Below, one piece after another: positions 8,731-47,918 of a stretch of DNA of 64,000 nt. A model generated the notes under the pieces. That model was not told where the DNA came from. It worked only from the letters and a program-made list of their open reading frames with translations, and searched no databases. Positions within the stretch are counted from its first letter, which is position 1; each line of letters starts with the position of its first letter. Source of the DNA: a plasmid; the sequence record NZ_CP148139.1. One strand, 5' to 3'. A program made the translations under genes and the position numbers.

Positions 8731-10218
8731 ATGTTAGAAAAAATAAAACTTGAATGGTTTTCGAATGTTCGTGGCGATTTGCTCGCGGGTATTGTTGTGG
8801 CTTTAGCTCTGATCCCAGAAGCTATTGCTTTTTCTATTATTGCAGGTGTTGACCCTAAAGTTGGTCTTTACGCTTCTTTTTGTATCACTTTCATTATCTC
8901 TATTGTGGGTGGCCGCCCCGGAATGATTTCGGCTGCAACGGGTGCGATGGCGTTACTTATGGTCACTTTGGTTAAAGACCACGGTTTAGAGTATTTGTTA
9001 GCGGCAACTATGTTAACAGGGGTATTCCAAATCATAGCCGGATATTTAAAACTCGGCAGCTTAATGCGTTTTGTATCACGCTCTGTCGTGACGGGGTTTG
9101 TTAATGCATTAGCAATTCTTATCTTTATGGCTCAATTGCCCGAGTTAACCAATGTAACTTGGCATGTTTACGCGATGACAGCAGCAGGGTTAGGAATTGT
9201 TTATTTATTCCCATATGTTCCTGCTATCGGTAAAGCGATCCCATCTCCTTTGATTTGCATCATCGTTTTGACAATTGTAGCAAGCGTCTCTGGAATGGAT
9301 ATACGAACTGTTGGTGATATGGGGCAACTTCCCGATACGCTGCCTATTTTCTTATGGCCAGAAGTTCCACTTAATCTTGAAACTTTATTCATTATTTTAC
9401 CTTATTCATTGGGCCTCGCTATGGTTGGTCTGTTGGAATCAATGATGACCGCCACGATTGTGGATGACCTTACGGATACCAAAAGTAATCGTAATCAAGA
9501 GTGTAAGGGACAAGGTATTGCTAACATTGGTGCAGGCTTAATGGGCGGTATGGCTGGTTGTGCCATGATTGGCCAGTCAATTATTAATATTAAATCTGGC
9601 GGACGTGGACGATTATCCACCTTAAGCTCCGGTATTTATCTTATCATCATGGTAGTTTTTCTAGATGAATGGCTTAAGCAAATCCCGATGGCAGCGTTAG
9701 TTGCAGTAATGATTATGGTAGCAATTGGTACCTTTTCTTGGAGTTCAATTAGAGATCTTAAAAAGCACCCATTATCAACAAATATTGTGATGATAACGAC
9801 CGTTGTTGTGGTTGTGGCAACGCATAACTTAGCAATTGGTGTTTTTGTCGGGGTGTTATTAGCGACGTTATTCTTTGCCAATAAAATTGGTCGTTTTATG
9901 GTGGTAAAAACAGAGTCACCAGTAGATGCAAGCCGAACTTATCAAGTTATGGGACAAGTCTTTTTTGCATCATCAGAGCAATTTATTGAATCATTTGATT
10001 TTAAAGAGGTGGTGAATAAAGTTGTGATTGATCTCACTCATGCTCACTTTTGGGATATTACTTCAGTATCATCACTTGATAAGGTGGTGATTAAATTCCG
10101 ACGCGAAGGAACAGATGTTGAAATTATTGGGATGAGTGAAGCAACAGAAACCATCGTTGATAAGTTTGGTGTGCATAATGATCCTAAAGAAGTCGAAAAG
10201 CTCATGGCAGGCCACTAA
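8731..10218 (+). CDS. SulP-family anion permease with C-terminal STAS domain
   Basis: Many transmembrane segments followed by a soluble C-terminal domain ([16 protein letters not shown]...), typical of SulP/STAS. Likely start at MLEKIKLEW. Confidence 0.75.
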
Positions 10219-27225: not shown

Positions 27226-28239
27226 ATGAAAACCGCCACTGCGCCGTTACCACCGCTGCGTTCGGTCAAGGTTCTGGACCAGTTGCGTGAGCGCATACGC
27301 TACTTGCATTACAGTTTACGAACCGAACAGGCTTATGTCAACTGGGTTCGTGCCTTCATCCGTTTCCACGGTGTGCGTCACCCGGCAACCTTGGGCAGCA
27401 GCGAAGTCGAGGCATTTCTGTCCTGGCTGGCGAACGAGCGCAAGGTTTCGGTCTCCACGCATCGTCAGGCATTGGCGGCCTTGCTGTTCTTCTACGGCAA
27501 GGTGCTGTGCACGGATCTGCCCTGGCTTCAGGAGATCGGAAGACCTCGGCCGTCGCGGCGCTTGCCGGTGGTGCTGACCCCGGATGAAGTGGTTCGCATC
27601 CTCGGTTTTCTGGAAGGCGAGCATCGTTTGTTCGCCCAGCTTCTGTATGGAACGGGCATGCGGATCAGTGAGGGTTTGCAACTGCGGGTCAAGGATCTGG
27701 ATTTCGATCACGGCACGATCATCGTGCGGGAGGGCAAGGGCTCCAAGGATCGGGCCTTGATGTTACCCGAGAGCTTGGCACCCAGCCTGCGCGAGCAGCT
27801 GTCGCGTGCACGGGCATGGTGGCTGAAGGACCAGGCCGAGGGCCGCAGCGGCGTTGCGCTTCCCGACGCCCTTGAGCGGAAGTATCCGCGCGCCGGGCAT
27901 TCCTGGCCGTGGTTCTGGGTTTTTGCGCAGCACACGCATTCGACCGATCCACGGAGCGGTGTCGTGCGTCGCCATCACATGTATGACCAGACCTTTCAGC
28001 GCGCCTTCAAACGTGCCGTAGAACAAGCAGGCATCACGAAGCCCGCCACACCGCACACCCTCCGCCACTCGTTCGCGACGGCCTTGCTCCGCAGCGGTTA
28101 CGACATTCGAACCGTGCAGGATCTGCTCGGCCATTCCGACGTCTCTACGACGATGATTTACACGCATGTGCTGAAAGTTGGCGGTGCCGGAGTGCGCTCA
28201 CCGCTTGATGCGCTGCCGCCCCTCACTAGTGAGAGGTAG
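27226..28239 (+). CDS. intI1: Class 1 integron integrase IntI1
   Basis: [94 protein letters not shown]... (337 aa). Confidence 0.95.
27313..27341 (-). promoter_or_regulatory. Pc: Integron cassette promoter Pc, strong variant (TTGACA-17 bp-TAAACT), inside the intI1 5' coding region
   Basis: The minus strand reads ttgacataagcctgttcggttcgtaaact, spanning the tgtcaa (27336-27341) and agttta (27313-27318) plus-strand hexamers. Confidence 0.6.
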
Positions 28240-28442: not shown

Positions 28443-28544
28443 CATGTGCAAACGATGTCAGAATAGAGTTAAATTTCCTATTGATTGACATATTCCGTCA
28501 AAGGTAATAGATTTCATCCTGACACTTTTGCCTTTGGAGGCATC
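28443..28544 (+). promoter_or_regulatory. res: Residual res subsite(s) and tnpR promoter; the integron boundary lies only about 100 bp upstream of tnpR
   Basis: Short AT-rich interval between IRi and the tnpR start. In Tn21-family elements the res site lies immediately upstream of tnpR. Confidence 0.4.
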
Positions 28545-33860: not shown

Positions 33861-34153
33861 TTTTTATAGGTCCTCCCATACTGTTTGAAATATTCATTGA
33901 GCTCTTTGTCTCGCTCATACGTAGCCGCATCTGCCGCTTGTCTGGCTTCATCAACCTGCTTTCTTTGTAGTTCTTCAGCCAGCTTCAGATAAGATTGAAT
34001 ATTCTCTTGGTTTGGTTCATTTGTTACGAGTTCAAACGCAGCTCTTTCACGTTCTTCCAATGAGCTGCACCCCATCAACGAAAACATGGCAACTGAAGCA
34101 CAAAAGTAAAAACGGGCGGTTGAGAATTCCCGTTGTGTTTTTTTCTTCATCAT
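33857..34153 (-). CDS. Small lipoprotein (98 aa; lipobox LMGC)
   Basis: Signal peptide plus lipobox FSLMGCSS. Translationally coupled on both sides. Confidence 0.45.
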   Translation of the reverse strand: MMKKKTQREFSTARFYFCASVAMFSLMGCSSLEERERAAFELVTNEPNQENIQSYLKLAEELQRKQVDEARQAADAATYERDKELNEYFKQYGRTYKK

Positions 34154-34986
34154 TTTTCCAACTTAATTATCTGTTGCCCCCTAAACACGCCAAGGAGAGT
34201 CGTTTTGTGTTTGTCAGAACGCTCCTGTCTGTCTGCTTCAGCAGTAAACAATGGCAGGGGACTTACTTTAAAATCCTGATCCTGCACTATCAAAAACGGC
34301 ACAGGAGCGTTTATGCAGCGTTTTTTCCCACTGGCAAAGGTTAGGTTGCAGATCGGCTGCGGCGTAACGCTACGCTTTATTCTGAGCCTATTAGCAGGGC
34401 ACTCTTGGATTTTATCCATTAAGTCCTGTAACTCAGCGTTGCCTTTTGCTATGTCAGCTATGAGCTGATAAAGCTTAACAGGGTCTGTTTTCTGCATGAG
34501 TCCTTTTAAGCCCCACGTATATGAAGCATGAGTGATCACATCGTCAGAGTTAAATACAGGAATGTTCCGGTACAAATGCAGTGTCATTACGTTACTCAGA
34601 TGTTTACGCAAAATTCTGAAACGCTCAGATTTTGGCAGTGCGACAACCGAGCTTCTGATATTGTTTTTTACGGTATTGATTTTGATTAGATGATCAGCAA
34701 GTTCCATAGCCGCAGTTGATAACTGTACATATCCGGCTGTTCGCCTCGCAAACTTTTGTGAGTACAACGGAGAAATGTATAAGTCCTGCCAACATGAGAT
34801 AACCGATGTATAGGCATGAGGACCCCAATTCACAACCGGCTCAATGCATTTACCGATATCATCACAACCATTTTCTACCGGTGGAATGACACAGGTAAGG
34901 GCTGAAATTACCTTTGTATCTCGAAAAAGAGAGTCAAGCTGGTGGAGGTACTTCAGCAATGAACCAATATAGCTATCAAGCATCAC
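34150..34986 (-). CDS. Hypothetical protein (278 aa), first gene of a three-gene overlapping operon; contains an Rx4H motif (RILRKH)
   Basis: RBS aggag upstream of the ATG. Its stop overlaps the next start (ATGA). Confidence 0.45.
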   Translation of the reverse strand: MMLDSYIGSLLKYLHQLDSLFRDTKVISALTCVIPPVENGCDDIGKCIEPVVNWGPHAYTSVISCWQDLYISPLYSQKFARRTAGYVQLSTAAMELADHLIKINTVKNNIRSSVVALPKSERFRILRKHLSNVMTLHLYRNIPVFNSDDVITHASYTWGLKGLMQKTDPVKLYQLIADIAKGNAELQDLMDKIQECPANRLRIKRSVTPQPICNLTFASGKKRCINAPVPFLIVQDQDFKVSPLPLFTAEADRQERSDKHKTTLLGVFRGQQIIKLEK

Positions 34987-35472: not shown

Positions 35473-36309
35473 CTATAATAAACCTATCTGCTTTTCGAGC
35501 TCGTCCAGTTCCTTATCGGTAGGTATAGAACTACCCACTTTTTCATTGTGAATAACATAGGATATGCGTAACACAGAAGCCTTGCGTCCTTTACGTGACT
35601 CAATCGCAATTGAAACATCCTTGATATTCGTTTGTTCACCCAAACTAACCGCCAGCCGCTTTAAAAACTGACCAAAATACTTATAGCTTTGATAGAGATA
35701 TTCCTTATTGCCTTTCTTATCTATATTGAACAGCCACATTTCGTCCTTAAGTTCGTCAACTCCAATTGTGAAAGACGTTTTATATTCGGCAATAGTATTA
35801 CGTTTAGAGTAACGTTTCATAATTAGCTGATATAGATTTGCCAAACTAGCATCCGATAATCTAGCTACATAAAAAAGGTTTTGTGTCGTGAATTTTTTTG
35901 ATAATTCAAAGAAATAGGGAAATACCCTACGGTTAAAGAATATTTTGCAGTAGCCTTCGTCAAAGTAATATGTAGCACTCGTTGTAATGTTGGTTTTTGA
36001 AGCTCGTTTAAAACCTTCCTCACTTAGATCTTCATATATGTGAGAGCTCAACAGAGTATCTACGGCGAGTGGAAGGGATTTATACGCAGTTGAAAGGTCC
36101 ACGTCACAAATTTCAGCATACTCCTTAGCTTTAACCTCAAAGCATATTTCATCTTCATCAACAGATTCTCTAGGATCAGATATCTGAGCGAGAATAAGAA
36201 ACAGCACTCTTTTCGCCGGTATAGGTAAGCTGGCGAGAGAAAGATTGAAATCATCAGAATGACGAACATTAGTATAAAGTGTTAAGTTACTGATTTGCTT
36301 CTTTTTCAT
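35473..36309 (-). CDS. repA: Iteron-type replication initiator (Rep_3 / RepA family); alternative upstream TTG start at 36372
   Basis: About 280-aa basic protein immediately downstream of an array of 22-bp iterons. General resemblance to pSC101/R6K-type Rep proteins. The product assignment rests mainly on context. Confidence 0.65.
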   Translation of the reverse strand: MKKKQISNLTLYTNVRHSDDFNLSLASLPIPAKRVLFLILAQISDPRESVDEDEICFEVKAKEYAEICDVDLSTAYKSLPLAVDTLLSSHIYEDLSEEGFKRASKTNITTSATYYFDEGYCKIFFNRRVFPYFFELSKKFTTQNLFYVARLSDASLANLYQLIMKRYSKRNTIAEYKTSFTIGVDELKDEMWLFNIDKKGNKEYLYQSYKYFGQFLKRLAVSLGEQTNIKDVSIAIESRKGRKASVLRISYVIHNEKVGSSIPTDKELDELEKQIGLL

Positions 36310-36537
36310 TACAAAAGACTCAATTCCAACATGATAGGTATATATTCTAAAGGTTGTTTTGTCTAAAAGCAAAGTGACCTTTAAAGTAATACGTAGCTGG
36401 TGGAGTATTGAACACCAGACGAAAATAGCCTTAACGTTGTGATAATAAATACATAAAGTATGTTACCTCTCACATTAGCAATACTTCCATGACGACTTAT
36501 TGCCAAGTCAGTTAACGAAATTTCCATATGACAAACT

Positions 36538-37080
36538 GCATATGTCACGACCTTTCGTTAACATACTGATAAACAGTAAGTTAATGAAGTCCACCATACT
36601 ACTCTATACTGCATCAACGACGACCTTTTACCTTAAACAGAAAAGTAACTTTTTTTTATGATCATACTGCACCAATGACGACCTTTAGCATAGCTGATTG
36701 ATATACAAAGATTATATATACATACTTACACCATTCTATACTGCATTAGCGGCGACCTTTAGCCACCAGCAGAAAAATACCTTTTTTTTATGACCGTACT
36801 GCATCAACGGCGACCTTTAGCGTAACAATATGATATATAAGGATTTATTTTAAGCATTTACACCGTTATATACTGCACAAGTGGCGACCTTTAGCCTTTA
36901 ATAGAAAAGTACCTTTTTTTATGACTATACTGCACCAACGGCGACCTTTTGTATAACATGTTGATATATATGAATTAAATTATGATAGAAGTATATATTT
37001 ATACTGCATCAGAGGCGACCTTTAGCCACCAGCAGAAAAATACTTTTTTATTGATTAACTGCATCAACGGCGACCTTTTG
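36538..37080 (+). repeat. Spaced iteron array: about 10 copies of the ctgcatcaacggcgaccttt family, 55-75 bp apart, each next to A/T-rich tracts
   Basis: Copies at about 36538, 36608, 36667, 36740, 36798, 36872, 36929, 37003, 37058 and 37240 (the tenth copy lies outside the 36538-37080 span, just before the tandem array), all read directly from the sequence. Confidence 0.75.
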
Positions 37081-37257
37081 CAGCAAATCAAAAATATACT
37101 TTTTCGGTAGTGGAATATTACAAAACATTTAAGAAAATCGTACTTATCCACAACAAAATTAGAAAATAAACTAATATTAATTAATAGGATATGATTTTTT
37201 TGATTAAATAACGAGCCTTGATTAATAATTAACCGCATATACTTTACAAGTGACGAC

Positions 37258-37375
37258 CTTTCACTGCATCAACGGCGACCTTTCACTGCATCAACGGCGA
37301 CCTTTCACTGCATCAACGGCGACCTTTTACTGCATCAGCGACGACCTTTCACTGCATCAGCGACGACCTTTAATA
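37258..37375 (+). repeat. Tandem iteron array: five contiguous 22-bp repeats (three tcactgcatcaacggcgaccttt, two tactgcatcagcgacgaccttt)
   Basis: Directly abutting repeats with no spacers, so they are iterons rather than a CRISPR array. Confidence 0.8.
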
Positions 37376-37644
37376 TCGTAACTAAATGATTATTATGAAT
37401 ATATCCCCATATCTAAGGTTTTAATGTTTTAAGATCTAAAAAGAAAGAAAAGATCTTAATATGCTAAGATGTGCTTCACTGTGGACAATTTTCTTATGCT
37501 TTCTAACGCACTCGCTTTGCTCGTTTGTTCAACAGCGACACCGACACGAAAACAAGTTTTCATGTCTCTCGCTGTTCAGAGCTAAAAATGTAAATTCATT
37601 TATGATTGAAAAAAAAAGCCCAAACAAATGTTTAGGCTTCTCAG

Positions 37645-38146: not shown

Positions 38147-38527
38147 TCAATCTGGTAATGAACCTTTCAAATTCTGTGCTGCCTGACTTGGGGGCTCCTT
38201 CTCTATTTTTACTTTATCAGTCAGTAACGCCCGTTTTGCCTGACTCAAATTTACTTTATTGTGAGCATGAGTGCCGTCACTATCAACAGTTAGAAAGGAA
38301 TCTAACATTACTTTGAAGGTATCAGCCTTTGTCCTGTCTGATAGAATTGAAGCCAGCAAAGAAGGCAATCTATCATCAATTTCCCCTAATGCGATCCCTG
38401 CCAGTAACGCTGTACGTACTGCTTCAGTTTGAACCGGCGATTCTTCAATCTTTTTAATTGCGAATTTATCAGCCTCGCTGAGTTCGGGACGAAGATACAA
38501 AATTATCTTTTTACGCTCTTGTTTCAT
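38147..38527 (-). CDS. parR: ParR/StbB-like centromere-binding adaptor
   Basis: Small basic protein (126 aa) immediately downstream of parM, as in the R1 parMRC locus. Confidence 0.55.
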   Translation of the reverse strand: MKQERKKIILYLRPELSEADKFAIKKIEESPVQTEAVRTALLAGIALGEIDDRLPSLLASILSDRTKADTFKVMLDSFLTVDSDGTHAHNKVNLSQAKRALLTDKVKIEKEPPSQAAQNLKGSLPD

Positions 38528-38531
38528 AACG

Positions 38532-39491
38532 TTATCCTAATAATTTCAGACCCCGAACCAAAGCAAACTGAGGTTCTTCAGCCACGTAGAAACGTTCTGG
38601 TTGGATTGCTATTTTCTTTCTGATTGCATCAGCGGAAAGCGCAGCTCCACCACCAATAACCATGACATGTGTATAGCCCTTAAAGGTGCTGACCGCATCG
38701 AGCACACGGGTATTTAGTCGTTCAATACTGCTATTCATGGCATCTTTCACCATCTGAATATCATCAACGCTGTTGATGTTATCTAACAGATAGTTTTCAT
38801 CGTGCCGGTTAATAATGAGTTGATCTGCGTTATAGCTGGATGTTTCTGTTGAAGCGTTCGCCAAAGCTCTTTTGACTTCGTTAGTCACCAATGATACGCC
38901 AAGCGTAGGATCACCAAAAATGCGTGATACAGACGTCATTTGACCAGAAACCATTGAGATATCAGTTGTGGTGCCTCCAATATCAATAATCAGTACAGAA
39001 TGATTGGGTCTTAATTCATCACACAAAGATATACCCGCAGGAATTGACTCAGGACGAACGGTTACTTTTTTGATTTTGAAAGGTTCATTCCGGCTTACTT
39101 GAACTTCGCGCATTAAGTTATCTTTTTTGCGTTGGATGTTATCCATTCGATATTGCGCATCCTGATCGTAAAATTCTGCCAATGGTAGAGTGACAACGAT
39201 TTCAACCTCTTGGGGAGGTAAACCGCTAATCTGAAGTGCATGTTGCACTGCAACTGCGTTTAGAGGGCTATACTGCCAAGCTACGTTGTTAGTTGGCAAA
39301 TTGTCAGGATCAATAATATCGAATGAATACTTCTCGTTATCAACGGTATAGTTGAATGGTTTGCCAGTACCAAAAGCCGTACCCCAACCGCGTTTGAAGC
39401 TGTTAGGACTAATTTTAATTACTTCACCTTCCTGATCCTGTTCCCACAGCATTTTTATGTTAGTAGAACCATCATCTATATAAATACGCAT
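38532..39491 (-). CDS. parM: ParM/StbA actin-like segregation ATPase
   Basis: [58 protein letters not shown]... parallels R1 ParM [58 protein letters not shown], including the DLGGTTTD phosphate-binding motif. Confidence 0.85.
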   Translation of the reverse strand: [319 protein letters not shown]

Positions 39492-39496
39492 TTGAA

Positions 39497-39790
39497 GCCT
39501 CTAATTGTTAATGTGATGCATCTGAGATTTATTTGATGCGATATTGAGTATGTTTGTAATTTTAACAGTGGGAGTTGAGTGTCGCAAGAGGTTGATGTGA
39601 GATTAATTTGAGAAATATCAGGGTGTAAAAATCATAATGAAAATGAAAATATATCATTTAGATGTGGGTGTGATGCATAACTGAGGTTTATATGAGGCTT
39701 ATTCTATGTGGTATTACTGTGTGAGGATTAATTGAGGTATATCTGATGTGTGTAGATATACCTCGATACCTTGACTGTGAATGTGTATCA
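39497..39790. promoter_or_regulatory. parC: Candidate parC centromere/promoter: repeated ga(g/t)(a/g)tt(a/t)atttgag-type 11-bp motifs upstream of parM
   Basis: Repeats such as ctgagatttatttgatg, gtgagattaatttgag, ctgaggtttatatgagg and gaggattaattgagg, seen directly. Confidence 0.45.
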
Positions 39791-40923: not shown

Positions 40924-41343
40924 ATGAATACCTATAATGTATCGTATAAGGTTAATCTTAATAACAATAACTATGCACTAGCTTCATTTGATGTACAAGC
41001 AAAGTCTGAAAAGGAAGCGCGTAGAATAATAAGCAAGTCGAATATAGGTGTTGAAGAATATACTGTTACTGGGAAAGACTTTTTCTCGGTAACGTGGTGT
41101 GTTGAAGATATTCATGCAAGTATTGTTTCCGGTTGGGATAGTGAAACAGAATTAGATGAATTTAATAAAACTGATCTTGATGTTTTCTATTTTAATTTAA
41201 GTGATGATGATAAAAAGAATTTTTGTTTAGATGTATTGGAGTCACTTAAAAACAACCATGATTGTAATTACGGTATTAATTGGGATGTAATTAAAATATC
41301 AGCAGATTCAAGTATGGATATATGGAAAAGATTAATTAATTAA
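40924..41343 (+). CDS. Hypothetical protein (139 aa)
   Basis: ORF with RBS gaggatgagtcATG. Confidence 0.35.
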   Translation: MNTYNVSYKVNLNNNNYALASFDVQAKSEKEARRIISKSNIGVEEYTVTGKDFFSVTWCVEDIHASIVSGWDSETELDEFNKTDLDVFYFNLSDDDKKNFCLDVLESLKNNHDCNYGINWDVIKISADSSMDIWKRLIN

Positions 41344-41678
41344 GATTCAATATTAAATTACAGAAAAATAGTCAGAGCTTATTGTGTCTGGCTATCTTCA
41401 CCAAAGGGAAAGCCTCTACTTATTCGTAAAATACTGCACAAAATGGCTGAAAAAAGTGAATGGATGCAAGTAGTGGCTTTTTAATATCATATATGCTTCG
41501 TCTAAGCGATTCTGAGTCACTTTAGCCTGTGCGCCAATGCTTACCCACGATGATGTGTGTAAGACCTCTCAAAATCGCCCCTACGCTGTTTTTAAAGACA
41601 GGGAAAGGATCGCCTACGGCTCACAGTACCCCCTAAAAGATCGCCTACGGCTCACAGTAAACAAAAAAAACATAAAAA

Positions 41679-42149
41679 TCAGCGAGTAACACCGATAACC
41701 GTTTTTCTTGTGCCCTTTTTCAAATGTGTAATTCTCATTTTCAATGATTTAGTAATATTTTTGGTTTGCTTAATGTCAGCCCTGATAATTTTAAACTTAT
41801 CCTCGTATTTTTGAATAAGTTGGCGTACTTCATCTGACCGAATAGAAAAATAGCGTATGTCAAAATCGCCATTACCTGTGGTTGGAGCATTACGCATAGA
41901 GCCAACTTTTTTAGTCGCCTTGTTCATCACGACCATTCCCCATCGAATCCGTACTGAGCCCCTGTCGTTATGAATTACTGGCAGGTATGGGGAGAATAGC
42001 TGTTTGTTATTTATTTCTTGCATAAACTGTTGGATCAGATTTACCGCATTATCAGCGCATACAGTTATTGCTTCCTCACAGTCAGCAAGGATTGCTTCCA
42101 GCTTTAGCAATAACGCATCTTCATATGATACTGACATGTATTTCAGCAC
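41679..42149 (-). CDS. Hypothetical basic protein (156 aa), divergent from the ltg-activator operon; candidate regulator
   Basis: ORF whose upstream region contains the repeated 13-bp boxes. Confidence 0.4.
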   Translation of the reverse strand: MLKYMSVSYEDALLLKLEAILADCEEAITVCADNAVNLIQQFMQEINNKQLFSPYLPVIHNDRGSVRIRWGMVVMNKATKKVGSMRNAPTTGNGDFDIRYFSIRSDEVRQLIQKYEDKFKIIRADIKQTKNITKSLKMRITHLKKGTRKTVIGVTR

Positions 42150-42208
42150 TCCAGAAAAGGTTCAGAAAAAGTCATTTTAACATAAACTAATTATACCGTA
42201 ACCACCCT

Positions 42209-42309
42209 ATTGGTGACTTAATGTCTCGATTACAATAAGTCGTAACTACTGTTTTGGTGACTTAATATGTGAGATACATTAAGTCACCAAAACCCCCTTG
42301 GTGACTTAA
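42209..42309. promoter_or_regulatory. Four copies (three direct, one inverted) of the 13-bp box TTGGTGACTTAAT in the divergent promoter region
   Basis: ttggtgacttaat at 42209-42221 (first copy, ttggtgacttaatg); further copies inside ttttggtgacttaata and ccttggtgacttaatg (exact coordinates not derived); inverted copy attaagtcaccaa. Confidence 0.45.
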
Positions 42310-42623
42310 TGTTTTTTGAAAATGTGCCGATAACAATTTTGGTGCAGAAGAAAGAATTGTCTTTCGTAAGCCATAAAACACCTATTTTCGACTTAATGCG
42401 AATGTTATTAATTTCTTTGGATAATAAGTATCATGCTACTAATTATTTTTGTTATGTAACATGTTGAATATAAGTGAAATTTTACTCCCTCTCTGTTTAC
42501 GTATACTGTAAATAAATGTATAATAAATTGCATTAGTCGTAGATAGTGTGTTGACGACTAATGTATGTCTTACTATAATTTATACTGATATATACGTATA
42601 TGCTCAGAATAAGTGAGGGGAGG

Positions 42624-43172
42624 ATGAAACGCTTTCTTCTGTTTTTAAGCATTTTTAATGCTGCGATTTGCGAGGCTGCTGTTGTAGATTTAACTAATAC
42701 CTCGTGGGAAAAGCACGCTAAACAATGTAACCTCGATCCGCTTTTACTCTATGCTATTGCTCTTAAAGAGAGCTCCCATAGAACAGCCGATAAATCCTTT
42801 GTTGCACCCCATCGCTATGCTTTAAATAACCCAATTATGGGCTCTTATTATCCGGTGAACCGAGATGATGCTGTCCGAAAAGTGCGGGAATATGTAAGCG
42901 TTTCAGCATTGACTGATATCGGTATTACACAAATTAATTGGCGTTGGAACGGTAGTAATTATGTTTCTGACCCTGCTGAGTTATTAGATGTAGATAAGAA
43001 CATTGAGGTATCAGCGAAGGTCTTGTGTCGAGCGATTGAACTATCTCCAAATGATATAGCGCAAGCCATCGGTAATTATCACACACCAAATCCAGCGTTA
43101 AAGAACAAAGCTAAAGAATATGGTGAATCAGTTCTGCTCATATGGAAAAGATTGAAAGAAAATGAACAATAA
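42624..43172 (+). CDS. Lytic transglycosylase (SLT domain; F orf169 / P19-like conjugation-associated muramidase)
   Basis: Signal peptide followed by the SLT catalytic motif AIALKESSH. Size 183 aa. Confidence 0.65.
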   Translation: MKRFLLFLSIFNAAICEAAVVDLTNTSWEKHAKQCNLDPLLLYAIALKESSHRTADKSFVAPHRYALNNPIMGSYYPVNRDDAVRKVREYVSVSALTDIGITQINWRWNGSNYVSDPAELLDVDKNIEVSAKVLCRAIELSPNDIAQAIGNYHTPNPALKNKAKEYGESVLLIWKRLKENEQ

Positions 43173-43716
43173 AATAAATTGCTACAACACTGAAATGACT
43201 GATGTACTTTTCAGTTTATTAAGTAATTCTGAAAGAGTTGATAATAATCCATTTGTGGTCGTCAATTCTGACAAAACCTGTTTTGTTGAAGATTTTTCCA
43301 TTATGAGAGATTTTTTCAGTGGATTGAAAGTGCCTGCTTATATATTAAGCTATAAAGAGGATTCTCAGTCTTTATATACTAAGAAAGACCCAAATTTTAA
43401 AAAATCTCTGTTGGATGTTTCATTTTTGCGTTTAACAATGCTAATTGAATCAGCAATTATTAATAGCATGTCTGGCACAGATACTAATCATTTCTTTTGG
43501 TTTAATGATTGTCAGTCATACAATACAATTAATAAGTTTTCTTTTAAGGAAATACTGTTTTCTTTGTATTCAAAGCAAATAAATATTTCTCCAATTTACA
43601 GACCTTCGATTATATCAACTAGATTAGTCGATAGTGATGGTTATCATAAAAAATATGATGATGTATTATTCTATCTTAAATCTAGAGCGCGCTTATGTGG
43701 AAAGGTGTTTAAATGA
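43162..43716 (+). CDS. Hypothetical protein, possible partner subunit (FlhD/SetD/AcaD-position) of the FlhC-like activator
   Basis: Translationally coupled upstream of the FlhC-like gene (4-nt overlap). No sequence-level recognition. Confidence 0.3.
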   Translation: MNNKINCYNTEMTDVLFSLLSNSERVDNNPFVVVNSDKTCFVEDFSIMRDFFSGLKVPAYILSYKEDSQSLYTKKDPNFKKSLLDVSFLRLTMLIESAIINSMSGTDTNHFFWFNDCQSYNTINKFSFKEILFSLYSKQINISPIYRPSIISTRLVDSDGYHKKYDDVLFYLKSRARLCGKVFK

Positions 43717-44273
43717 AATTAACTATTGCGCCAGAAGATTATCAATTAGCAATTGATATGATAAAACTTGGATTTAGAAAGAATGTAATATTGTCTGAGA
43801 TTCCAGCAATATCTCCACGTATGTATGGATGTTTACGAAATGATTCAGGAATTGATAATGAGGATAATGATTTTACGTTAGGACGACTAAGAAAAATTAG
43901 CACTATATTAGCTAATCAACATGATAAACGATCTGCTACTGATTTTTTACATGTATATTTAATGACTGCACAAGATCCAGAAAATAGATTGCAAATAGAA
44001 GAATTGGTTGGTGCTTATAAAGCATACCGCCATTTATTTAATGTTCATTGTGGTTTCTTTGATGATCCATTAAAGAAACACATAATTGATCCGAACTTGG
44101 CATGGCAAATTGCAACCAATTACCGAAATGGAATAATTGGTTTAACTGGCTGTTTTGAGTGTCGGCAGAAATATATCTATCTTACACACGAATCAGAGGA
44201 TTCCTGCAATATGAAATGTCCTTATTGCTCTGAATCTAAAGAAAATGAATTCATTAATAATAAGGGTGAATAA
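43713..44273 (+). CDS. FlhC-like transcriptional activator (SetC/AcaC-family master activator of transfer genes)
   Basis: The N-terminus AIDMIKLGFRKNVILSEIPAISPRMYGCL parallels FlhC [29 protein letters not shown]. The C-terminal four-Cys zinc site CFECRQ...CPYCSES parallels FlhC CNCCGGNF...CSLCQ. Confidence 0.5.
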   Translation: MKLTIAPEDYQLAIDMIKLGFRKNVILSEIPAISPRMYGCLRNDSGIDNEDNDFTLGRLRKISTILANQHDKRSATDFLHVYLMTAQDPENRLQIEELVGAYKAYRHLFNVHCGFFDDPLKKHIIDPNLAWQIATNYRNGIIGLTGCFECRQKYIYLTHESEDSCNMKCPYCSESKENEFINNKGE

Positions 44274-45112
44274 TGAAAAGTTGTAAAATGATTACAGGAA
44301 TTCTATTTTCATTAGTGTTATCCGGCTGTGCTAATAATGAAAATAGTAATTGGATATATAATAATGAGGCTTCAAAACCAGTGGTTGAAAATGGAAGTGA
44401 AGCTCTCAAAATTGCTAAATCAATAGGGTTGAATAATCTAGATGATGATGCGGATAATTACACAATCTTTGCTGTGTTAGTACCAAGTCAGAAAGGAAAT
44501 TCATTAAAAAAAATTAAGGAACCTATTGTTGTAAGCGATACAAAAGGGATGGATCAGTTAAGAGAAATCATCTCACAAAGTAAGAATGCAGTAAATGTAG
44601 TGGATCTTACCCTTGCTGCAACAGTAAACCCTGTTTTTGGGCTCTTAGCTTTTGATACAAGCACACCAGAAGAACGAGCGCCTATGATGGAAGGTCGTTT
44701 ACTAGTAACCGAATGGGGATCTACACCGCTGAGTTTCAGTGACCAACTTTTGAAAACGAAGCGTATTAACTCTGTCTTTGATAAATACTTATCAAATGCA
44801 ATTAAAGCTGAAGTGGCTGGAAATGTTTTAGCATGTAACGCTGCTAAATTTGTATCTGTTACTGAAAATAGAAATATTTCCGATCAGAATCTATATGTAA
44901 ATGTGCATCAAGCACCATTCACTAATCTGAAGTATTCATATAATTATACGGATCATGAGTGTGTTCATTATTTACACGATACTGGTAGGTATGAGGAAGA
45001 ATTCAAGAAAATTAGTGTTGAGTTAGGTCCTGAAACCGTACTGTTTTTGCCGAGCAATTTGAAAAGTGAGCCAAAAATAATACGGAATGGTCAGGTATAT
45101 AAATTTAGATAA
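44273..45112 (+). CDS. Lipoprotein (279 aa; lipobox LSGC)
   Basis: Signal peptide MKSCKMITGILFSLVLSGCANN. Confidence 0.5.
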   Translation: MKSCKMITGILFSLVLSGCANNENSNWIYNNEASKPVVENGSEALKIAKSIGLNNLDDDADNYTIFAVLVPSQKGNSLKKIKEPIVVSDTKGMDQLREIISQSKNAVNVVDLTLAATVNPVFGLLAFDTSTPEERAPMMEGRLLVTEWGSTPLSFSDQLLKTKRINSVFDKYLSNAIKAEVAGNVLACNAAKFVSVTENRNISDQNLYVNVHQAPFTNLKYSYNYTDHECVHYLHDTGRYEEEFKKISVELGPETVLFLPSNLKSEPKIIRNGQVYKFR

Positions 45113-45117
45113 AAAAA

Positions 45118-45146
45118 ATCCCGCTAATAAGCGGGATTTTTTTTAT
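45118..45146. terminator. Bidirectional terminator (aaaaaaaatcccgctaataagcgggattttttttat) between the lipoprotein gene and traN
   Basis: Perfect hairpin cccgct/agcggg flanked by A-run and T-run. Confidence 0.65.
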
Positions 45147-47918
45147 CTATTCATCTTTAACACTTAACCTTGTTTTCGCTCTTTGTCTAACTTCTTCTAA
45201 ATCTGTACCTTCAACCCCTCTGGTAAATCGCTCGACAGAGTTTACTCGCTTTCCATCAGCATTGAGTGTACTTCCAGAACCCGTATATTTATCGAGGTCA
45301 AATTCTTTGAAATCAGGAAGCATGTCGGCTTCTTTAAGAGTTGCGGTCCATTCAGAAAAGTCTATTTTGGTGAAGTCTACTTTATCCATATCTGCTAATG
45401 TAATTCCTTCACAATTCGGATTTTTTGTATCACCGTATCCTATTGTTCCTCTAACGTGCTCAGTGATTATTCTGGCTACCTGAGAGTTATACGCACAGTA
45501 GCTACTTTTCTTTTCGATACATGCGCCAAGGACCTTCTTAGAACACCAACTGTCTACCTTTGTCGCTAACTTAGTTTCTTTTTTGATTGCCAGTTTGAAT
45601 TCTTCATCGGTACAAGCCCATATAATATTCACCAATAGGTTTGCCATTTGGTATGCCAAGTATGCATATCCGACAACTGACATGGCTGTTGTGATCGTTG
45701 ATGAAAGTTGCACTACTGAAGCACCTGAGCTAGCCCCTCCGTTTTCTGCTAATGATTGAGTTGCAGTTTTTCCGCCTTCAGTAGCTGCGGATTGGAAAAT
45801 AGCGTTTGTAACAGCCTCACCGAAGGTGTTTGCAGTCCATTCGGCAACTTTGGTTGTTAGGTTGTTAAGCGCTGCTGTTGTCATCGAGACAACGCCTTTT
45901 TCAGCGACTCCTTGAGCTACTTCAGCACCGGCATTTCCAACAAAAGAGTTAAAAGCGGAAATAGCAGGTTTTGTAATAGCTTCCACCGCATCCATAGCTG
46001 CTGTGCTTGCCATATCAAATAAGCCTACACCACCATCAAACAACCCTGCTTCTATCGCTAAGGCATCTGCCGCTCTCATAGTCATCATTGAAAGCTGTAC
46101 GTATTCTATCCAGCTCACACCGACCGGTTGATCACAACAATCTACCCATCCTCCCATTGCCGTTCGGCATGTCAGAGCTTCACCTTTGAAAATGACACAT
46201 TGCTCTTTATTCAAAGAAGATTCACCGTTGTTTGCTTCTTCTGCATCAGCACAATTCGTATCTGCCAATGCAAAAGATGCCGCATTCAACATAGCAGCCG
46301 CTGTTGCAAAATCACCATTCTCTTGAGATGAAGGACGTAAACATGATCCATTTAGACATTGTACAGCGCCGTCACAAATTAGCTTTTCATGGACTGCGCC
46401 ATTATTAAAGGTAACATCTTTTCCACAATCCCATGTTTCACTAGATTGCCAGCAACCAGCAATATCACCTTCTTTTCCTGTTAAACATTGAGATTTTATA
46501 AACGAACAACCTTGCTTCTCGTATTTCTTGCATGTGTTGTTTACCCCATGCTCTTTACCGCAATGCGTGATCACTTCTGCTCTCTTACAGAATGGTGATA
46601 TTTTATCTAACGGAGGTGGTACGAAGTCCTCTTTACAGAGTTTGACACCATCTATGACAGCACAACCGTCTTTATCGGGGATTATTGTGTCATGACAAAC
46701 AACAGTGTAATCCTGACAAAATCCTTCTTTAATGGCTTTTACAGCCTTGTTAAATTCACTTTGCTGTGGCGAGCTCCAGACATCATTAGTAAGTGCTTTT
46801 TTCTTATCAAATTGAATGCGTAATTGTGCAAAGCCTTCACCTGCACCGGTTACTGATACTCTGTTTTTAAAAAATACCTCATCATTCGGTTGGACTTTAC
46901 TAAATTTTTCAGTCACATCAACATTTAACTGCTGATCCCAACTCGTTGAAAGTTCGCACCGACCAGGAGTTTCAGGTGGAAAAACATCTTTTCCGTGTGG
47001 TCCACCCCATACCTGTTCAAGATCAGTGCTTGTACCAGCATAGATTTGCATGTAATCATCCCATTTAGCGCGGGTTATTTTTGCGCTAATAACAGCGGTT
47101 GGGTTAATAACATTCACAGACATATAATCTTCAAATATTCGGCAGTTACCTTTCCAATAGTCATCACCTACTTTTCCTAACCAGATATCAACACATGTCT
47201 CACCACAGGTTTTAATATTTGCAGGACCTGAATTATGAGATACCAAACCTGCTAAATATGGATGATTAACTATGTAACCACCTGTCACATCGACTGTTTT
47301 TGTGCATTCCTTATAATCAGGTATGTGCTTTTTATCTACATAATCCTCAAATACCTGTTTTGTTTCGCATTTTGAAATAGCATCGGAATATTTTTTTTCA
47401 TTTGAGAGAAAATCGTTATGAACATTAAAAACATCATCATCTTTGTTAATGTCAATTGAGGAGTGACGGGATGCCCCTACTAAAGTTCGGTATGCCTCTC
47501 CTTTGGGGCTTTGTTCTGTTTTCAGTTTTTTTGATTCATGAAACCCAATTTCATTTGTTTTGCTATCATTGCCATAGACGTTTGATACATCATCTACCCC
47601 CATAGCAAAGCTGTCTTTATAATAAATATTGTTAAAATTGACAGATTCACCTTTACCAAATTGTGAAGTACCTTTCGAATCTACATTTAGGCTTGGTAAT
47701 GTTTTATAAAAATTTAAAGCCTCTTTAGCTGTGTCATGACCAGCAGTAACTCCCTCCAGATTATTTTTATCTGTCTGATATTTACCTGTGTTTTCTGGAG
47801 GTTTTGTCGAAACTTCAGCAAATGAGTTAACGGGTGTTATCATCACTGAGAGATAGGCTATTAGTGATAAATGTGTCACCACCGAAGAAAAATTTCTTCT
47901 CCTAAAATTTTGAATCAT
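45147..47918 (-). CDS. traN: TraN-like mating-pair stabilisation outer-membrane protein (Cys-rich, 923 aa)
   Basis: Signal peptide, a large size, and a very Cys-rich C-terminal half (more than 30 Cys), as in F/SXT TraN. Context is with traG/H/F. Confidence 0.65.
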   Translation of the reverse strand: MIQNFRRRNFSSVVTHLSLIAYLSVMITPVNSFAEVSTKPPENTGKYQTDKNNLEGVTAGHDTAKEALNFYKTLPSLNVDSKGTSQFGKGESVNFNNIYYKDSFAMGVDDVSNVYGNDSKTNEIGFHESKKLKTEQSPKGEAYRTLVGASRHSSIDINKDDDVFNVHNDFLSNEKKYSDAISKCETKQVFEDYVDKKHIPDYKECTKTVDVTGGYIVNHPYLAGLVSHNSGPANIKTCGETCVDIWLGKVGDDYWKGNCRIFEDYMSVNVINPTAVISAKITRAKWDDYMQIYAGTSTDLEQVWGGPHGKDVFPPETPGRCELSTSWDQQLNVDVTEKFSKVQPNDEVFFKNRVSVTGAGEGFAQLRIQFDKKKALTNDVWSSPQQSEFNKAVKAIKEGFCQDYTVVCHDTIIPDKDGCAVIDGVKLCKEDFVPPPLDKISPFCKRAEVITHCGKEHGVNNTCKKYEKQGCSFIKSQCLTGKEGDIAGCWQSSETWDCGKDVTFNNGAVHEKLICDGAVQCLNGSCLRPSSQENGDFATAAAMLNAASFALADTNCADAEEANNGESSLNKEQCVIFKGEALTCRTAMGGWVDCCDQPVGVSWIEYVQLSMMTMRAADALAIEAGLFDGGVGLFDMASTAAMDAVEAITKPAISAFNSFVGNAGAEVAQGVAEKGVVSMTTAALNNLTTKVAEWTANTFGEAVTNAIFQSAATEGGKTATQSLAENGGASSGASVVQLSSTITTAMSVVGYAYLAYQMANLLVNIIWACTDEEFKLAIKKETKLATKVDSWCSKKVLGACIEKKSSYCAYNSQVARIITEHVRGTIGYGDTKNPNCEGITLADMDKVDFTKIDFSEWTATLKEADMLPDFKEFDLDKYTGSGSTLNADGKRVNSVERFTRGVEGTDLEEVRQRAKTRLSVKDE

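Follow-up and report, generated by a model that had tools for sequence, protein, structure and literature searches.

Genes and features of the locus

The window analysed here, a 64,000-nucleotide (nt) stretch of the plasmid record NZ_CP148139.1, contains at and around positions 42150-44273 two sets of features that face each other. On the plus strand, four overlapping genes encode a specialised lytic transglycosylase, a 184-residue protein, a 186-residue FlhC-family protein and a lipoprotein. On the minus strand, a divergent gene encodes a basic homologue of MobI, and the region between them carries four exact copies of the 13-bp box TTGGTGACTTAAT. We think it fairly likely that this locus is a hub for the initiation and control of conjugative transfer, made up of two separable parts, namely an activator operon and mobI with the transfer origin (oriT). 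The original prediction had described a master-activator module of three genes and had taken the boxes for probable operators.

The window region matches pPrY2001-group plasmids from Providencia and Proteus at 100% identity, for example CP099527.1 and pHFK418-NDM, both typed as having a MOBH relaxase and an MPF_F mating-pair system. Its backbone recalls SXT/R391 and IncA/C, with traF-traH-traG, traN, bet/exo-like recombination genes and a TraI_2 relaxase. The TraI protein of the identical plasmid CP099527.1, encoded outside the window, matched TraI_2 (E 3.5e-67) and has no TraI_2_C. Judged by its sequence, the window is a pPrY2001-like MOBH1/MPF_F conjugative plasmid. Plasmids of this type are major vehicles for blaNDM-1 in Proteus and Providencia, and their oriT and transfer regulation are undefined in the literature searched; one pPrY2001 paper classes flhC as 'plasmid maintenance'. 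The framework of AcaCD/SetCD and MobI/oriT gives handles on both, in the form of a 135-bp candidate oriT, a presumed adaptor and two activator genes.

The transglycosylase operon and its FlhC-family protein

The first gene of the operon (42600-43172, plus strand; annotated start 42624) encodes a transglycosylase of 190 residues, or 182 from the annotated start, with a signal peptide. The protein matched the Pfam family SLT (PF01464, E=9e-7, 28.9 bits against a cut-off of 21.3), contains the catalytic Glu-Ser motif as ALKESS in the translation, and is the orthologue of vcrx147 of pVCR94 (37% identity, E 2e-33). Its open reading frame (ORF) overlaps by 11 nt that of the 184-residue protein (43162-43716, plus strand), which in turn shares an ATGA overlap at 43713-43716 with the ORF of the 186-residue protein (43713-44273, plus strand). 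These overlaps confirmed the arrangement first proposed for the three genes. The module is longer than proposed, as a fourth gene had been missed: it starts with a 1-nt overlap with the FlhC-like gene, runs to 45112 (44273-45112, plus strand) and encodes a 279-residue lipoprotein with the lipobox LSGC. No significant family match was obtained for this lipoprotein in Pfam or NCBIfam. A gene of similar size follows the FlhC-like gene in four of five syntenic plasmids (those of Arsenophonus, Citrobacter, Klebsiella and Xenorhabdus), and two smaller genes take its place in Proteus pNDM_NMG38-2. The lipoprotein gene holds the position of the entry-exclusion gene eex in SXT/R391, and an exclusion role is only a guess. 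The operon shares a bidirectional hairpin terminator (45106-45149) with traN, which is convergent to it.

The transglycosylase gene is directly preceded, on the plus strand, by a strong sigma-70-like promoter (42551-42579, TTGACG-17-TATAAT, 11 of 12 consensus positions), and a second sigma-70-like site (10 of 12) lies at 42496-42524. The promoter at 42551-42579 was recognised by consensus only, and neither Arsenophonus nor Xenorhabdus conserves it. Its -35 element and spacer (42551-42569) read TTGACGACTAATGT, which resembles the box (as TTGGTGACTTAATGT) with two changes and one T deleted; this may be chance or a weak extra binding site.

The 186-residue protein belongs to the FlhC family and is of the AcaC/SetC type. 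The Pfam FlhC model (PF05280; cut-off 27 bits) gave it a score of 27.9 bits over residues 8-173 (E 2.4e-6). The NCBIfam FlhC model gave E 9e-7 with a score far under the equivalog cut-off, indicating that the protein is not a flagellar FlhC. A profile of the protein and five orthologues matched solved FlhC structures over columns 4-165 (8j56_C, E 4e-10; 2avu_E, E 8e-7). The four cysteines of the C-terminal zinc site (C147, C150, C169 and C172) are invariant in seven sequences, AcaC included, and identity reaches 25% with IncC AcaC (E 7e-7) and 32% with SetC over the C-terminal 82 residues, Cys pairs included. The FlhC-like protein with a four-Cys site that had been proposed is thus borne out by the Pfam score, the solved structures and the invariant cysteines. 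A profile search of genome contigs with the FlhC-like alignment returned eight loci only, all from known lineages.

The order transglycosylase-D-C, in which D precedes the FlhC-like C, recurs in IncC, R997, pHX3 and pVAS19, among them an Aeromonas and a pAQU-type plasmid, and in plasmids of Arsenophonus, Xenorhabdus, Citrobacter, Proteus and Klebsiella, and most plasmids with this order also have the stop-start overlap of D and C. In IncC, acaC and acaD are both essential, and their products co-purify and directly activate tra promoters (PMC4207636). SetCD is a class II activator (PMC4344509), and the surroundings of such activator genes always include traG, a ParM-type partition system (SrpRM), a lysozyme-like gene and mobI (PMC4542580). 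The FlhC-family C protein, together with the positional match to vcrx147-acaD-acaC and SLT-setD-setC, makes a SetCD/AcaCD-type master activator of the tra genes the best reading of the operon, which would then add a new member to a known kind. From these homologies and this synteny we would expect the FlhC-like zinc-ribbon protein to act with the translationally coupled 184-residue protein as a heteromeric activator of the class II type, and the pair to switch on the promoters of the tra, relaxase and recombination operons.

The 184-residue protein in the D position

The 184-residue protein stands in the position of AcaD and SetD, and this position and the gene overlaps suggest that it is the partner subunit. 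The slot between the transglycosylase and C is filled by genes for 174-202 residues in nine plasmid lineages, and R997 has the 99-residue SetD. The protein had been described as longer than FlhD, and so it is; since AcaD has 202 residues, the length is no anomaly. No match was found in Pfam or NCBIfam, and a profile search of the PDB with the protein's family was also without a match. Only four real homologues, too few for a deep profile, came out of word-indexed searching and of an exhaustive phmmer run against 1.84 billion representative proteins. A profile link was found to the D-slot family of the Citrobacter type (hhalign 81.5%, E 1e-5, 142 columns). AlphaFold2 models from a 7-sequence alignment reached a mean pLDDT (predicted local distance difference test) of 42.5 at full length and 46.4 for residues 79-184, values at which matches in a fold search would be meaningless.

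We infer from the conserved slot and the translational coupling that the 184-residue protein partners the FlhC-like protein. D subunits outpace C subunits in divergence, with 23% identity between AcaD and SetD against 34% between AcaC and SetC (PMC4207636). As C has itself fallen to 25% identity with AcaC, the D protein could have diverged past detection. It could be either a diverged FlhD-type subunit or a replacement by an unrelated protein, and it offers a test case of the limits to which an FlhC-type activator's partner can diverge, or of whether it can be replaced.

Several results weigh against a SetCD/AcaCD-type activator at this locus. Pfam FlhD (PF05247) gave no match at E<=1 to the 184-residue protein or to five syntenic D-slot proteins; among known D subunits, the same model gave 2e-7 for AcaD, 1.9e-9 for SetD and 3.8e-4 for the pAQU-type AqaD (21.1 bits, below the 27-bit cut-off). 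In hhalign comparisons of the 184-residue and D-slot families with AcaD, SetD and FlhD, the probability stayed below 1% (best E 0.07-0.9); the set-ups comprised whole proteins, AcaD halves, a domain-level FlhD alignment, relaxed mact and global mode. The positive controls were detected (AcaD against FlhD, E 2e-4; the N half of AcaD against its C half, E 2e-12; AcaD against solved FlhD, E 1.5e-5). No acr1-, acr2- or setR-like gene was found at the locus, and ten neighbouring unknown proteins showed no helix-turn-helix (HTH) or H-NS domain and gave no repressor candidate. The operon promoter looks constitutive. No shared activator motif was found upstream of the tra operons by an expectation-maximisation search and inspection of 17-27 upstream regions, and this search yielded only GC-rich terminator hairpins and Shine-Dalgarno sites. 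Of the heteromeric activator first proposed, the FlhC-family subunit and the gene order stand. Profile comparison with proteins of the FlhC/FlhD/AcaC/AcaD type placed the 186-residue protein and left the 184-residue protein unplaced, in agreement with the earlier statement that the latter is not recognisably FlhD-like.

Some weak local alignments of D-slot proteins to AcaD, SetD and FlhD appeared during these comparisons; their register was inconsistent, and they were treated as noise. The AcaD family itself (acaD of pVCR94, retrieved locus 9145-9750, and homologues) contains an internal tandem FlhD-like duplication, in which hhalign matched the N half to the C half at 97.7% (E 2e-12). As AcaD is tandem, while SetD (99 residues) and FlhD are single-copy, AcaD may be a covalent FlhD 'dimer'.

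The divergent gene encodes a MobI homologue

The divergent gene (41679-42149, minus strand) encodes a basic protein with an isoelectric point of 9.8. Its ORF reaches a GTG at 42149, giving 156 residues, and an ATG at 42137 gives 152 residues. The ATG is most likely the start, judging by the annotation of identical plasmids and by the alignment of orthologues. This protein had been named as a candidate repressor. Profile comparisons indicate instead that it is a homologue of MobI, the family of the oriT-binding relaxosome adaptor. The match to Pfam MobI (PF19456) had E=1.9e-5 and 25.2 bits, just below the cut-off of 26.6, and six of six syntenic counterparts matched the same model at E<0.01 (best 3.8e-31). 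Identity was 43% to the Arsenophonus protein, which NCBI names MobI(A/C), and 51% to the Xenorhabdus counterpart, annotated as hypothetical. Comparison by hhalign connected the window group to the IncC group in two steps, from the window group to a Citrobacter group (97.2%, E 4e-11) and from the Citrobacter group to the IncC/pAQU/Aeromonas MobI group (97.1%, E 6e-11); the direct comparison of the window and IncC groups was weak (E 0.03). The mobI homologue shares its plasmid with a MOBH1 TraI_2 relaxase that lacks TraI_2_C.

In IncC plasmids, MobI binds oriT and recruits the MOBH relaxase; it gives a single peak at oriT in exonuclease-trimmed chromatin immunoprecipitation (ChIP-exo), self-associates and contacts the C-terminal domain of the relaxase (PMC13635750). 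Every MobI-dependent element that has been studied has its oriT adjoining the 5' end of mobI (PMC13635750). At 41604-41659, just past the mobI stop codon in the window, a 25-nt sequence (AAAGGATCGCCTACGGCTCACAGTA) is directly repeated; its two copies are 96% identical and separated by 31 bp.

The 13-bp boxes between mobI and the operon

Three of the exact copies of TTGGTGACTTAAT lie on the plus strand (box 1, 42210-42222; box 2, 42254-42266; box 4, 42298-42310) and one on the minus strand (the inverted box, 42278-42290). No further copy with at most one mismatch occurs within the 64 kb. At this threshold, 0.12 copies are expected and four were observed, a number that no shuffle out of 100 attained. 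The direct copies are spaced by 44 and again 44 bp. The three direct boxes and the inverted one were correctly described in the original prediction. The octamer GACTTAAT occurs six times in the window, five of them inside the 190-bp box stretch. The inverted box forms perfect palindromes with box 2 and with box 4, of 16 nt with an 11-nt spacer and of 15 nt with a 7-nt spacer; thus 42276-42312 is a perfect 15-nt inverted repeat around a 7-nt C-rich spacer.

Two degenerate boxes had escaped the first count. One is inverted (42233-42245, minus strand; AATAAGTCGTAAC on the plus strand) and aligns with full inverted boxes of relatives, namely those in Arsenophonus, Xenorhabdus and small plasmids. 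The other is direct (42385-42397, plus strand; TTTTCGACTTAAT), lies 87 bp past box 4 and has a left flank like that of box 1.

The boxes sit about 60-160 bp from the start of the mobI ORF, and the perfect boxes lie 240-340 bp upstream of the transglycosylase promoter, the last of them at about 240 bp from it. On the minus strand, a -10 element of mobI (TATAAT, 42190-42195) falls in columns that are invariant in a three-plasmid alignment, and box 1 overlaps the -35 position of this putative promoter. Binding of MobI to box 1 may therefore autoregulate mobI.

Two other features of the intergenic region were considered and rejected. The hairpin at 42276-42312 is not supported as an intrinsic terminator, as 5 of its 15 pairs are GC and no plus-strand gene lies upstream; the T-run is also missing in the Arsenophonus counterpart. 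A 52-residue ORF at 42309-42467 had no support and is unannotated in every identical record. An Rfam search of 41300-42700 gave no match.

Box-like sequences were also seen outside the window, in a hypothetical coding sequence of CP099527.1. An inverted pair (TAGGTGACGTAAT and ATTAAGTTACCAG, two mismatches each, 16 nt apart) lies at 28198-28239, and a further copy with two mismatches at 28513-28525. About two such matches are expected by chance, yet the pairing is suspicious.

The box array as a candidate oriT

The four exact boxes and the degenerate inverted one, with the DNA beside them, form a 135-bp block (42181-42316) composed of a 30-bp leader followed by alternating direct and inverted 13-bp boxes. 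The leader, CATAAACTAATTATACCGTAACCACCCTA, begins with CATAAACTAATTATACCGTAAC and is conserved. The block has a GC content of 0.35 and a single-strand fold with z = -5.3. The IncA/C oriT is AT-rich, about 150 bp long, contains 14-bp direct and several inverted repeats, and lies directly upstream of mobI, overlapping its promoters (PMC5587640); our inspection of IncC likewise found short direct and inverted repeats upstream of mobI. The SXT oriT also lies upstream of mobI (PMC4344509, PMC5587640).

We compared the array with those of relatives. The boxes of Arsenophonus (ATGGACTTATTG) and Xenorhabdus (TTAGGACTTTAT) are collinear with the window array and have a common GACTT core; they too form inverted pairs around C-rich spacers, and the remaining intergenic DNA does not align. 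The linkage of array and mobI is kept in three lineages. In addition, eight Proteus/Providencia plasmids of 5.5-13.4 kb have a 135-bp block that corresponds precisely to 42181-42316, with about 79% identity. All eight fall within the 18 block-matching records typed as non-mobilizable by PLSDB. In the small-plasmid copies, the boxes and the 30-bp leader are conserved and the spacers have diverged. Two of the eight were examined, pZF2-7kb (with a SIR2 gene; block at 1699-1833) and pPRVEN3-2 (with blaOXA-181; block at 9835-9969). On both, the genes found encode the Rep_3 initiator and an HTH/coiled-coil protein; the others are a toxin-antitoxin pair and cargo. Neither has a relaxase or mobI gene, and no homologous gene or activator operon adjoins the block. 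On such plasmids an operator of mobI or of the activator operon would have no reason to persist, whereas an oriT used in trans would.

The proximity of the boxes to mobI, their distance of about 240 bp from the operon promoter and their recurrence on small plasmids lead us to read the array as an oriT. The four-box array is most likely the plasmid's oriT with its MobI sites, and not a set of operators of the activator operon. MobI dimers or multimers would bind the direct and inverted boxes, and box-bound MobI would recruit the TraI_2 relaxase, which would nick nearby; the 30-bp leader beside box 1 is the candidate nick region. MobI bound to box 1 may also autoregulate mobI, which is compatible with a function as oriT. 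Of the regulatory role first given to the boxes, control of the activator operon is thus not supported, and autoregulation of mobI through box 1 is possible.

Three points speak against this assignment. In the assemblies of two small-plasmid hosts, no co-resident pPrY2001-like plasmid was found. The 13-7-13 inverted repeat also recalls the core site of a recombinase. Finally, the pPrY2001 literature searched makes no mention of an oriT or a relaxase.

If the array is an oriT, pZF2-7kb and pPRVEN3-2, lacking mobI and relaxase, would rely on the MobI of a helper recognising near-identical boxes. We predict that small plasmids typed as non-mobilizable, one of them with blaOXA-181, can be mobilised by pPrY2001-like helpers, and such mobilisation would change how the spread of resistance genes is modelled. 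We advance only tentatively a broader, joint claim, which we consider possible but rather doubtful as a whole. It states that, in pPrY2001, Arsenophonus, Xenorhabdus and Citrobacter-type MOBH plasmids, the FlhD-type partner of the FlhC-like activator has been exchanged for an unrelated protein of 175-185 residues, which would make the pair a new kind of heteromeric master activator, with no linked repressor of the acr1/setR type, and also that the 135-bp array serves as the oriT of small plasmids, among them carriers of blaOXA-181 and of SIR2 defence, which would be mobilised via the MobI of NDM-carrying helpers.

The pPrY2001-like plasmid pPROV081-1 contains an integrated small replicon of rep_cluster_1791 (NZ_CP096343.1 68951-85101), which brings a second box array of its own. 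Two copies of merR flank the insert beside IS26, and the whole represents a cointegrate of a helper and a putative passenger.

Other explanations of the boxes

The boxes might instead be operators at which the divergent basic protein, or else the activator, acts to repress or autoregulate the operon of the transglycosylase and the activator. They do lie within the shared divergent intergenic region, the operon has no repressor gene of the acr1 or setR type before it and would need some other control, and the box-like TTGACGACTAATGT, with its one deletion, spans the -35 element and spacer of the promoter at 42551. Box 1 on the -35 position also makes autoregulation by MobI plausible. The perfect boxes, however, are 240-340 bp away from the operon promoter and beside mobI, the basic protein belongs to a family whose known role is to bind oriT and recruit the relaxase (PMC13635750), and in the two small plasmids examined the block adjoins neither mobI nor the activator operon. 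IncC mobI, moreover, is constitutive and outside the acaDC circuit (PMC13635750). We therefore regard operators as unlikely. A related proposal, that the FlhC-like protein and its 184-residue partner bind the boxes as a class II activator and drive mobI or transcription into oriT, seems to us distinctly less probable. Box 1 stands where the mobI promoter is without a -35 element, as in SetCD- and AcaCD-dependent promoters (PMC4344509), a SetCD peak was found by chromatin immunoprecipitation in the mobI-s003 intergenic region of SXT (PMC4344509), and the 13-11-13 palindrome is reminiscent of FlhDC sites. A master activator should, however, have a motif throughout its regulon, and nowhere in the whole plasmid does a box copy, even with two mismatches allowed, precede a tra, relaxase or recombination operon. 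In addition, IncC mobI is independent of AcaCD (PMC13635750), and the boxes persist on the two small plasmids examined, where no gene is placed so that they could drive it.

The inverted 13-nt arms around a 7-nt spacer, with extra direct copies, resemble loxP- or FRT-type sites, and the array could accordingly be a site for site-specific recombination or multimer resolution, perhaps one that mediates cointegration of small and large plasmids. A precedent exists in IncA/C, where a 14-bp inverted repeat mimicked oriT and proved to be a recombination hot spot (PMC5587640), and two pPrY2001-like plasmids hold an integrated small plasmid with a second box block. In the cointegrate examined, however, the two box blocks are about 30 kb apart and the replicon lies between duplicated merR copies beside IS26, not between hybrid boxes. 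A recombinase would need matched spacers, and it is the spacers that differ most between the large and small plasmids; the locus has no linked recombinase gene, and linkage to mobI is conserved in three lineages. We consider this improbable, about as much so as binding by the activator and perhaps slightly less. Short repeats common to two kinds of Rep_3 plasmids could also suggest replication iterons or a partition centromere, an explanation to which we give hardly any credence. Beside rep, both plasmid types have tandem 22-bp iterons of their own that are unrelated to the box, parM has separate repeats upstream at 39520-39695, and the boxes show mixed orientation, 44-bp phasing and a distance of about 6 kb from repA. 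An oriT with MobI sites thus remains the assignment that we prefer.

Comparison with known systems

Among characterised systems, IncA/C is close in layout. In pVCR94, the order acr1-vcrx147-acaD (202 residues)-acaC-acr2, with a 4-nt overlap of acaD and acaC, corresponds to the window in gene order and overlap. Both systems have a MOBH TraI_2 relaxase, MPF_F tra genes and a D protein of comparable size (184 residues here and 202 there), and in both AT-rich short direct and inverted repeats abut the 5' end of mobI. In contrast to IncA/C, the window has neither acr1 (an HTH gene) before the transglycosylase nor an H-NS-like acr2 after C. AcaD consists of two tandem FlhD-like domains, whereas the D protein of the window has no FlhD signature. 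In the window, mobI and the candidate oriT face the activator operon directly, while in IncC parM, acr2 and another gene intervene. The repeat sequences are unrelated, and only here is a lipoprotein gene joined to the operon.

SXT/R391, represented by R997, likewise has transglycosylase-setD-setC beside traG/traN and an oriT upstream of mobI; its layout is setR / croS ... transglycosylase-setD-setC-eex. It differs in that SetD is a single FlhD domain of 99 residues (Pfam E 2e-9), in that control is by the SOS-responsive SetR, which is absent here, and in that the element is integrative, with mobI far from setDC. The flagellar FlhD4C2 complex (PDB 2AVU, 8J56) shares with the window the full-length FlhC match, the four-Cys zinc site and adjacent D and C genes in that order. 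The window partner, in contrast, has 184 residues and no similarity to FlhD, its gene is plasmid-borne and linked to a transglycosylase, and the likely targets are conjugation genes and not flagellar ones.

Close matches were found among uncharacterised syntenic MOBH plasmids, which share the architecture of the window locus (paNv_CAN3, TH1, and Citrobacter, Klebsiella and Proteus plasmids such as pNDM_NMG38-2). In Arsenophonus nasoniae paNv_CAN3 and Xenorhabdus sp. TH1, MobI is 43-51%, C 47-53% and D 36-40% identical to the window proteins, and the flanks of the boxes are lineage-specific. Plasmids of the Citrobacter type differ from the window in that parM and one more gene separate their mobI from the transglycosylase gene, and in that their repeats are unrelated. 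The small Proteus/Providencia plasmids, in turn, resemble the mobilizable genomic islands of SXT and IncC, as the helper's box array is present on them in a diverged form and neither of the two examined encodes a relaxase. The IncC islands differ in having their own mobI beside their own oriT (PMC13635750), whereas the small plasmids examined have no mobI.

Replication and partition features of the window

A replication origin lies at 36532-37393, upstream of a Rep_3 gene (35473-36372). It contains about six tandem 22-bp iterons (CGACCTTTCACTGCATCAACGG) at 37232-37393, with scattered copies in 132-bp units. A Tus-like gene of the Ter family (34150-34986; Pfam Ter, E 2.5e-23) lies beside this origin. 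Upstream of parM (38532-39491) and a Plasmid_stab_B gene (38147-38527), three 17-nt repeats (ATCTGAGATTTATTTGA) occur at 39512-39695. These repeats near parM are the probable parC centromere and are unrelated to the 13-bp boxes.

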